A stretch of 64,000 bases of DNA, from sequence record MH051913; one strand, written 5' to 3'. Source of the stretch: Enterobacteria phage vB_EcoM_IME281. Below are positions 3,229-3,906 of this stretch, piece after piece. Positions within the stretch are counted from its first letter, which is position 1. Each line of letters begins with the position of its first letter. Under the pieces are notes generated by a model. It had not been told where the DNA came from and did not search any database. It saw only the letters and a program-made list of their open reading frames with translations. The position numbers and the translations under genes are program-made.

Positions 3229-3451
3229 ACAAACCGTTGAACAGAAACTGCAGTCTGAAATCGTTATCCTGAAATCTCGTATCCTTGATACTCAGGACCA
3301 TGCACAGCGTGTTAAAGCTGATTGTGACCTTCTTACCAAAGTACTTGGTGAGATTGCTGCAGTAGTTGGCGTTACCGGTGATTCTGTTAAAATCGAAGAC
3401 CTGGTTGAAGCTGTTAAAGCCCTGGTTCCAGAAGCTTCTGACGAAGAATAA
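3221..3451 (+). CDS. 57A: tail fibre assembly chaperone gp57A (76 aa)
   Basis: [25 protein letters not shown] matches recalled T4 gp57A; coiled-coil; synteny after gene 1. Confidence 0.7.
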
Positions 3452-3906
3452 TGAAAACGGAAGATTTTGCTCAAGGTCTATACGTTGCTGCAAAATTCTC
3501 TGAATTGACTTTAGATGCGCTGGAAAATCTTCAGCGCACTTTAAAGGTTCCTAATCCGGTTCCTCGTGAAAAATTCCATTCTACAATCTGCTATTCAAGA
3601 GTCAACGTTCCATACACCGTTGCATCCGGAAGTTTTGAAGTTGCTTCGACAGGACATCTTGAAGTGTGGAAACATGGCGATTCTCCCGTCTTGGTACTGG
3701 TTCTCGATTCAGAGTATCTTAAATGCCGCCATCAGTATGCTCGTACCTTAGGTGCTACGCACGATTTCGATGATTATACCCCTCATATCACATTGTCTTA
3801 TAATGTAGGACCTCTTACCTTTAGTGGAGATGTCCGGATTCCTGTCGTTTTAGATAGAGAATATAAAGAACCCTTGAAGCTCGACTGGGCCGAGGATTTA
3901 AAATGA
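3451..3906 (+). CDS. acb1: 57B / Acb1-like 2H phosphoesterase (anti-CBASS cyclic-oligonucleotide phosphodiesterase family)
   Basis: Two H-x-T/S-x motifs (HSTI, HITL) about 80 aa apart, typical of the 2H superfamily; size 151 aa and position after 57A match T4 57B. Confidence 0.6.

Follow-up and report, generated by a model that had tools for sequence, protein, structure and literature searches.

Two counter-defence genes of bacteriophage T4, acb1 and dmd, have been characterised experimentally. T4 57B is Acb1, which was found by activity-guided fractionation as a cGAMP-degrading enzyme (Hobbs et al. 2022, PMC9117128), and deletion of acb1 renders T4 sensitive to CBASS (PMC9117128). The same study defined the catalytic tetrad, H44, T46, H113 and T115, arranged as HxT/HxT, together with the base-stacking residues Y12, W74, F107 and W147 and with E141, which reads the adenine N6 (PMC9117128). 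Activity has been demonstrated by experiment for the T4 and FBB1 proteins only (PMC9117128). An intact acb1 also exposes T-even phages to targeting by Panoptes guard systems, which are triggered by nucleotide depletion (PMC13577387). Dmd, encoded by the phage, directly inhibits the HEPN RNase toxins RnlA and LsoA (PMC8266594 and references therein). In enterophages, a 'p0068-family' ADP-ribosyltransferase (ART) is paired with Dmd, and a toxin-antitoxin pair has been proposed (Iyer et al. 2022, PMC9503650).

How does the DNA analysed here compare with these systems? The window, a stretch of 64,000 nt from record MH051913, was placed by DNA searches of two of its regions in a JS98-like T4-type phage of the genus Dhakavirus. 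Around acb1 (2400-6200), identity reaches 99.8% with Escherichia phage EcWhh-1 and 98.3% with JS98, whereas for the region around dmd (55900-61100) the best matches, EcWhh-1 included, reach only 96.3% identity. With these differing identities, the window represents a mosaic within a genus that is already well sampled. Both acb1 and dmd have been annotated in Dhakavirus before; the two genes are already known and are nothing new in kind. Judged from the sequence, the window very probably carries functional orthologues of both characterised T4 genes. The assignment is based on homology, residue conservation, gene order, intact frames, purifying selection and variable flanks, and the enzymatic activity of Acb1, toxin binding by Dmd and the timing of expression are carried over from the orthologues. 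Neither open reading frame is truncated in comparison with its homologues or interrupted by a frameshift or premature stop.

The acb1 gene (gene 57B, 3451-3906, plus strand) begins with ATG and encodes a protein of 151 aa, which Pfam, PDB and T4 homology assign as a 2H-family cyclic oligonucleotide phosphodiesterase. Residues 8-149 match Pfam family PF23474 (Acb1) at profile positions 1-144 of 144, that is, over its full length (E=1.5e-58; 197.1 bits against a cut-off of 27), and residues 9-148 match PDB 7t26 chain A, the FBB1 Acb1, with a single 1-residue insertion (E=2.9e-59). A single-sequence AlphaFold model reached a pLDDT of 42 and was discarded as unusable, so the assignment of the compact 2H phosphoesterase fold rests on homology to the solved chain 7t26_A. 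Identity is 84% to T4 gp57B (NP_049750) and 66% to the Acb1 of Erwinia phage FBB1 (PDB 7T26/7T27), and the lengths agree to within one residue (151 aa in the window against 152 aa). The window protein shares with T4 Acb1 its Pfam family, the HxT/HxT tetrad, the Y/W/F/W/E contacts and its place after 57A; it differs at 24 substitutions, none of which falls at a published functional site.

The preliminary description, made from the letters of the window, had noted two H-x-T/S-x motifs in the open reading frame at the 57B position and had taken that frame for the orthologue of T4 Acb1. Both points stand. The motifs H43-S-T45-I and H112-I-T114-L lie in the frame at exactly 3451-3906, and the profile match, the identity to T4 and the preserved contact residues establish the orthology. 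The catalytic histidines, whose failure to align with Acb1 would have told against that reading, do align, H43 with H44 and H112 with H113. The full tetrad H43/T45/H112/T114 matches T4 H44/T46/H113/T115 column for column, the window numbering being one lower, and Y11, W73, F106, W146 and E140 correspond to T4 Y12, W74, F107, W147 and E141, all identical. The HxT/HxT residues are invariant across eight family members down to 30% identity, in an alignment that reaches homologues from Acinetobacter, Aeromonas, Cronobacter, Klebsiella and Salicola phages at 30-45% identity. By tblastn, acb1 is present in 1469 of 50,697 phage records, and the protein is 95-100% identical in 50 records.

Could 57B instead be a LigT-type RNA-repair enzyme, either a 2',5'-RNA ligase or an RNA 2',3'-cyclic phosphodiesterase, rather than an anti-CBASS nuclease? 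The 2H fold is common to LigT-type and Acb1 enzymes, the PHROG family matched by 57B (phrog_755) is named 'RNA ligase', and several RefSeq records, JS98 included (L002 4052-4507), call the gene product by the same name. The window protein also has a weak match to the corresponding Pfam family (2_5_RNA_ligase2, PF13563), but this match spans residues 61-122 only and falls below the cut-off (E=0.028; 14.9 bits against 27), compared with 197 bits for the Acb1 profile. Activity-guided fractionation identified the closely similar T4 protein as cGAMP-degrading, and its deletion led to CBASS sensitivity (PMC9117128); the residues that stack on the bases of the cyclic nucleotide are all kept in the window protein. 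'RNA ligase' is a fold-level name that dates from before 2022. The sub-threshold profile, the Acb1 homology and the conserved contacts rule against the RNA-repair reading, which we consider highly improbable. The name 'RNA ligase' that RefSeq and PHROG give to 57B conflicts with the experimentally shown function of Acb1 and is outdated.

The acb1 gene shares an operon with gene 1 (2467-3228, plus strand), a dNMP kinase gene (Pfam DNMK, 1.5e-89), and with its upstream partner gene 57A (3221-3451, plus strand), which encodes the tail-fibre chaperone (Pfam GP57, 1.3e-28) and stands in the same order as in T4 and JS98. The acb1 start overlaps the 57A stop (TAATG), and the acb1 stop overlaps the start of the next open reading frame (ATGA). 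The order 3-1-57A-57B is common to the window, T4, JS98 and T4-like phages of Acinetobacter, Aeromonas and Cronobacter. A scan for the late-promoter box TATAAATA returned 9 matches in the window against about 7 expected, none of them directly upstream of acb1, and generic sigma-70 and terminator scans around acb1 gave results at chance level; we therefore claim no dedicated acb1 promoter.

In the mechanism that we propose from the orthologues, acb1 would be translated from the gene 3-1-57A-57B operon, and its product would act as a metal-independent 2H phosphoesterase. The enzyme would trap those cyclic di- and trinucleotide alarm signals in which one or more of the nucleosides is adenosine, for example 3'3'-cGAMP, cUA, cAAA and cAAG. 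The substrate would be held between Y11, W73, F106 and W146 while E140 reads the adenine N6, and H43, T45, H112 and T114 would cut 3' of the adenosine via a 2',3'-cyclic phosphate intermediate. With the alarm nucleotides thus destroyed, the CBASS effectors would never be activated. By analogy with the characterised enzymes, Acb1 most likely hydrolyses adenosine-containing cyclic di- and trinucleotides and so disarms the CBASS effectors.

Is the gene still in working order? In some relatives, acb1 has been lost or inactivated under Panoptes pressure, as with the nonsense mutation in Bas43 and the acb1 mutations in Bas35 escapers (PMC13577387), and it is conceivable on these grounds that acb1, dmd or both are decayed relics, catalytically dead or unexpressed and kept only through their position in an operon. 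Against this reading, both frames are full length, the catalytic residues of Acb1 are all intact, and each gene is either tightly coupled in translation or preceded by a ribosome-binding context. Synonymous codon differences in acb1 clearly exceed non-synonymous ones, by 14:3 in comparison with WG01 and by 64:24 in comparison with T4. With intact frames, catalytic residues and the synonymous excess all pointing away from decay, we rejected this reading as extremely improbable. An intact and functional acb1 predicts resistance to CBASS systems that use adenosine-containing cyclic di- or trinucleotides. Since Panoptes targets phages with an intact acb1, the intact gene predicts a liability as well as a benefit.

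The preliminary description had also placed acb1 and dmd at the borders of hyperplastic regions, and this is borne out: the internal-protein block varies after acb1, and dmd is itself a bounded cassette. Its suggestion that neighbouring cassette-driven frames are candidate counter-defence genes is reasonable, but acb1 itself falls outside it, being part of the conserved 3-1-57A-57B operon and not of a variable cassette. Against the 1469 records with acb1, the full 843 bp downstream of it (3903-4745) are found in only 8 of the 126 records that match this segment. The first gene of the variable block is a 69-aa open reading frame (3903-4112, plus strand; phrog_23867) with an N-terminus of internal-protein type, translationally coupled to acb1. 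Most Dhakaviruses lack it, JS98 included; among the matches listed by a DNA search, the 8 full-length records contain it and one further record contains part of it, and the window and WG01 copies differ by one amino acid. JS98 has an identical acb1 gene order, but the gap after 57B holds other content in place of the 69-aa frame. In T4, ipI comes next after 57B across a 73-bp gap, whereas in the window the 69-aa frame overlaps the acb1 stop.

Two internal head protein genes, Ip8/Ip9-like, follow at 4191-4415 and 4417-4689 (plus strand). They match PHROG internal virion and head families (3e-27 and 2e-56), relatives annotate them as ip8 and ip9, and they carry the N-terminal motif MKTYQEFI.E. 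In a motif scan, the frames at 3903-4112, 4191-4415 and 4417-4689 were all found to start with MKTY(S/Q)EF(L/I).E, and the same leader, MKTY.EF(I/L).E, occurs on the frames at 7603-8220, 16513-16911 and 17429-17728 (plus strand), giving six frames in total. We take this start to be the capsid-targeting leader of T4 internal proteins.

The same block contains an early-promoter cassette (TTTACA-N16-TACTATAG; repeat family D1) at 4106-4169 on the plus strand, with further copies at 4674-4737, 8261-8324 and 57563-57592; as a 64-nt unit it recurs at 4106, 4674 and 8261. The strict form, TTTACA-N15-18-TACTATAG, occurs seven times in the window against an expectation of 0, always on the plus strand (at 4126, 4693, 8281, 19201, 27807, 57563 and 58578), and several of these strict copies sit inside longer conserved 64-nt repeats. 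Early-promoter cassettes flank the frames that neighbour acb1 and also those that neighbour dmd.

The dmd gene (57933-58136, plus strand) encodes 67 aa and is assigned by Pfam, PHROG and PDB matches as the antitoxin-mimic inhibitor of the RnlA/LsoA HEPN RNases, in its JS98 allotype. Matches were obtained to Pfam PF17587 Dmd (E=5.1e-20; 72 bits against a cut-off of 27), to the PHROG Dmd family (5.3e-32), and to PDB chains 5i8j_A (2.1e-21) and 5hy3_B, 'Antitoxin Dmd' (1.4e-16). The protein is 97% identical to the Dmd of JS98, the Dhakavirus type species, in which the gene order is the same, and 58% identical to that of T4. It shares both its family and a conserved core, GWF..MFTKE...W.T.QYAEVN.ALVKAF, with T4 Dmd (PDB 5HY3 chain B, in complex with LsoA) and with RB69-type Dmd (5I8J); compared with T4 Dmd, it is 7 residues longer and has a 3-residue insertion and a C-terminal RIEEI tail. 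The frame at 57933-58136, earlier named as the gene for an antagonist of RnlA/LsoA toxins, is by Pfam, PDB and position a clear T4 dmd orthologue.

The surroundings agree with this assignment. As in JS98 and T4, the gene has helicase gene 41 on one side and the 61.4/sp/61 block on the other, and in T4 and the window alike its locus is next to gene 41. The order in the window is 41, ART, dmd, a 46-aa frame, frames of 98 aa and 117 aa (at the JS98 61.4 and sp positions) and, further on, gene 61. Two features set the window copy apart from T4 dmd: an ART gene, absent in T4, stands before it, and 16-nt direct repeats flank it. We detected Dmd in 796 phage records, most of which belong to Escherichia and Shigella phages and nearly all the others to phages infecting Yersinia, Salmonella and Citrobacter, a host spread that is consistent with an enterobacterial target.

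In the proposed mechanism, dmd would be expressed early from the promoter cassette at 57563, downstream of gene 41. As T4 Dmd does, the protein would bind the HEPN RNase toxins RnlA and LsoA directly, replacing the labile host antitoxin, and phage late mRNAs would thereby be protected. By this analogy, Dmd is most likely made early and binds RnlA/LsoA-type toxins, and the intact gene predicts growth on E. coli positive for rnlAB or lsoAB. Because the protein shares no more than 58% identity with T4 Dmd and a second allotype exists, its toxin specificity may differ from that of T4 Dmd.

What bounds the dmd cassette? A perfect 16-nt direct repeat, TGAGGAAATCTAAATG, lies on either side of it on the plus strand, with the left copy at 57920-57935 and the right copy at 58124-58139; these are the two matches in the window, against 0.12 expected. 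Comparison of the 204-bp dmd segment and its surroundings with the relative L005 gives 92-99% identity upstream of dmd, 70% and then 49% over 57900-58100, and 83-86% in the next 200 bp. In L005, L006 and L008 (3319-3513), Dmd is 51-54% identical to the window protein at the amino acid level, while the upstream ART is 98-99% identical. Given a near-constant ART beside a Dmd of such low identity, we conclude that Dhakaviruses carry two Dmd allotypes, the second of which reads MSESIKVKFVGHF... The TGAGGAAATCTAAATG pair flanks both allotypes in relatives, and the allotype pattern, as read from the alignments, suggests cassette replacement. Three further relatives, L018, L020 and L021, are without dmd; they have a single copy of TGAGGAAATCTAAATG followed directly by the 46-aa Cys-rich frame. 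This junction, GAGGAAATCTAAATG, is an exact empty-site or deletion product.

The 46-aa frame itself (58137-58277, plus strand; phrog_13952) is acidic and zinc-ribbon-like, with three Cys pairs (CVVCGC, CSVC and CLDC). It is unannotated in JS98 and is kept beside the ART gene in the dmd-less relatives.

The gene immediately upstream of dmd had been overlooked in the preliminary description. It occupies 57615-57932 on the plus strand, encodes 105 aa with an Arr-like minimal ADP-ribosyltransferase fold, corresponds to JS98 orf34 and has no counterpart in T4; its stop codon runs directly into the dmd ATG (TAAATG). Its 120 homologues, of about 96-110 aa, have an invariant Y-H-G motif, and the residues R41, K43, N44, L45, F49, T51, Y60, A61 and R63 (window numbering) are invariant. 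The AlphaFold model (pLDDT 85, pTM 0.77) has as its best PDB fold match the Arr rifampin ADP-ribosyltransferase (9IAF), with a Foldseek probability of 1.0, a TM of 0.63 and 21% identity; further fold matches are pertussis toxin S1, ParT, tankyrase and cholera toxin. Sequence profiles gave less: the match to Pfam Arr-ms was weak and below the cut-off (E=0.005), and the family profile had no match among PDB sequences. The ART fold and an N-terminal H-G-S/T motif are shared with Arr (PDB 9IAF) and with the 'p0068-like' viral ART family (Iyer et al. 2022). Arr, however, is about 140 aa long as against 105 aa for the window ART, and ARTs of the window type are phage-borne and confined to T4-like phages. 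The gene was found in 608 GenBank phage records, including 116 from Klebsiella phages, 68 from Acinetobacter phages and 62 from Aeromonas phages, and it also occurs in Vibrio phages.

Is Dmd, then, the antitoxin of its phage-encoded neighbour? Under such a reading, Dmd would serve here mainly to neutralise the upstream ART toxin as part of a type II pair, and inhibition of host RnlA/LsoA would be secondary or absent. In favour of this reading, the ART stop abuts the dmd start, one early-promoter cassette lies ahead of both genes, the ART-fold model is confident with an invariant Y-H-G-S motif, and the pairing has been pointed out before (PMC9503650). The distribution of the two genes argues otherwise. 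Dmd was detected within 3 kb in only 9 of 65 IMG/VR ART loci, which cover 3 kb on each side and in which a diverged Dmd could escape detection; the other downstream neighbours were heterogeneous. Phages of Klebsiella, Acinetobacter, Aeromonas and Vibrio carry the ART, yet these genera are absent among the Dmd matches listed. Conversely, the ART is missing from T4 and T2, which do have Dmd, and in L018, L020 and L021, whose ARTs are 78-84% identical, the ART gene stands beside the exact dmd-less junction. Within Dhakavirus the ART stays 98-99% constant while Dmd swaps to the 51-54% allotype, which is unlike a co-evolving pair.

Across the IMG/VR loci and GenBank phages, consistent co-occurrence or adjacency of ART and Dmd was not found, and the literature that we searched contained no experiment on ART toxicity and its neutralisation by Dmd. 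ART and Dmd are largely independently distributed, and obligate pairing is therefore not supported. We consider it quite unlikely that Dmd is mainly the antitoxin of the ART; an ART-Dmd interaction limited to a lineage may nevertheless exist, and the distribution data are compatible with one. A different role for the neighbour can be imagined, in which the ART would act for the phage as a so far uncharacterised effector of host take-over or counter-defence and Dmd would perhaps modulate it, thereby gaining a second, phage-encoded partner; the repeat-flanked dmd, with its two allotypes and exact empty sites, would then be a swappable specificity module in an arms race against RnlA/LsoA-type toxins. 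We put this forward as speculation and judge it unlikely. The preferred reading of dmd remains that of an orthologue of the T4 inhibitor of RnlA/LsoA-type toxins.

The status of acb1 and dmd in a given phage helps the prediction of host range in phage therapy, and the value of knowing it is practical only. What the present analysis adds to the earlier annotations is the boundaries of the dmd cassette, the existence of two allotypes of Dmd, the gene with the ART fold next to it, the negative co-occurrence test and the recognition that the label on 57B is outdated. The repeat-bounded dmd, its allotypes and the ART gene are incremental findings that may guide work on the exchange of anti-defence genes among T4-like phages.

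Two further features of the window were noted. The tRNA cluster at 6510-6742 (plus strand) consists of three genes only, Met-CAT, Asn-GTT and Arg-TCT, as it does in JS98, compared with eight in T4. A 40-nt element, present at 6915-6954 and again at 7539-7578 with 88% identity, combines a GC hairpin (GGCCC...GGGCC), a T-run and the late-promoter box TATAAATA; repeated around the open reading frame at 6979-7533, it looks like a terminator-plus-late-promoter unit.
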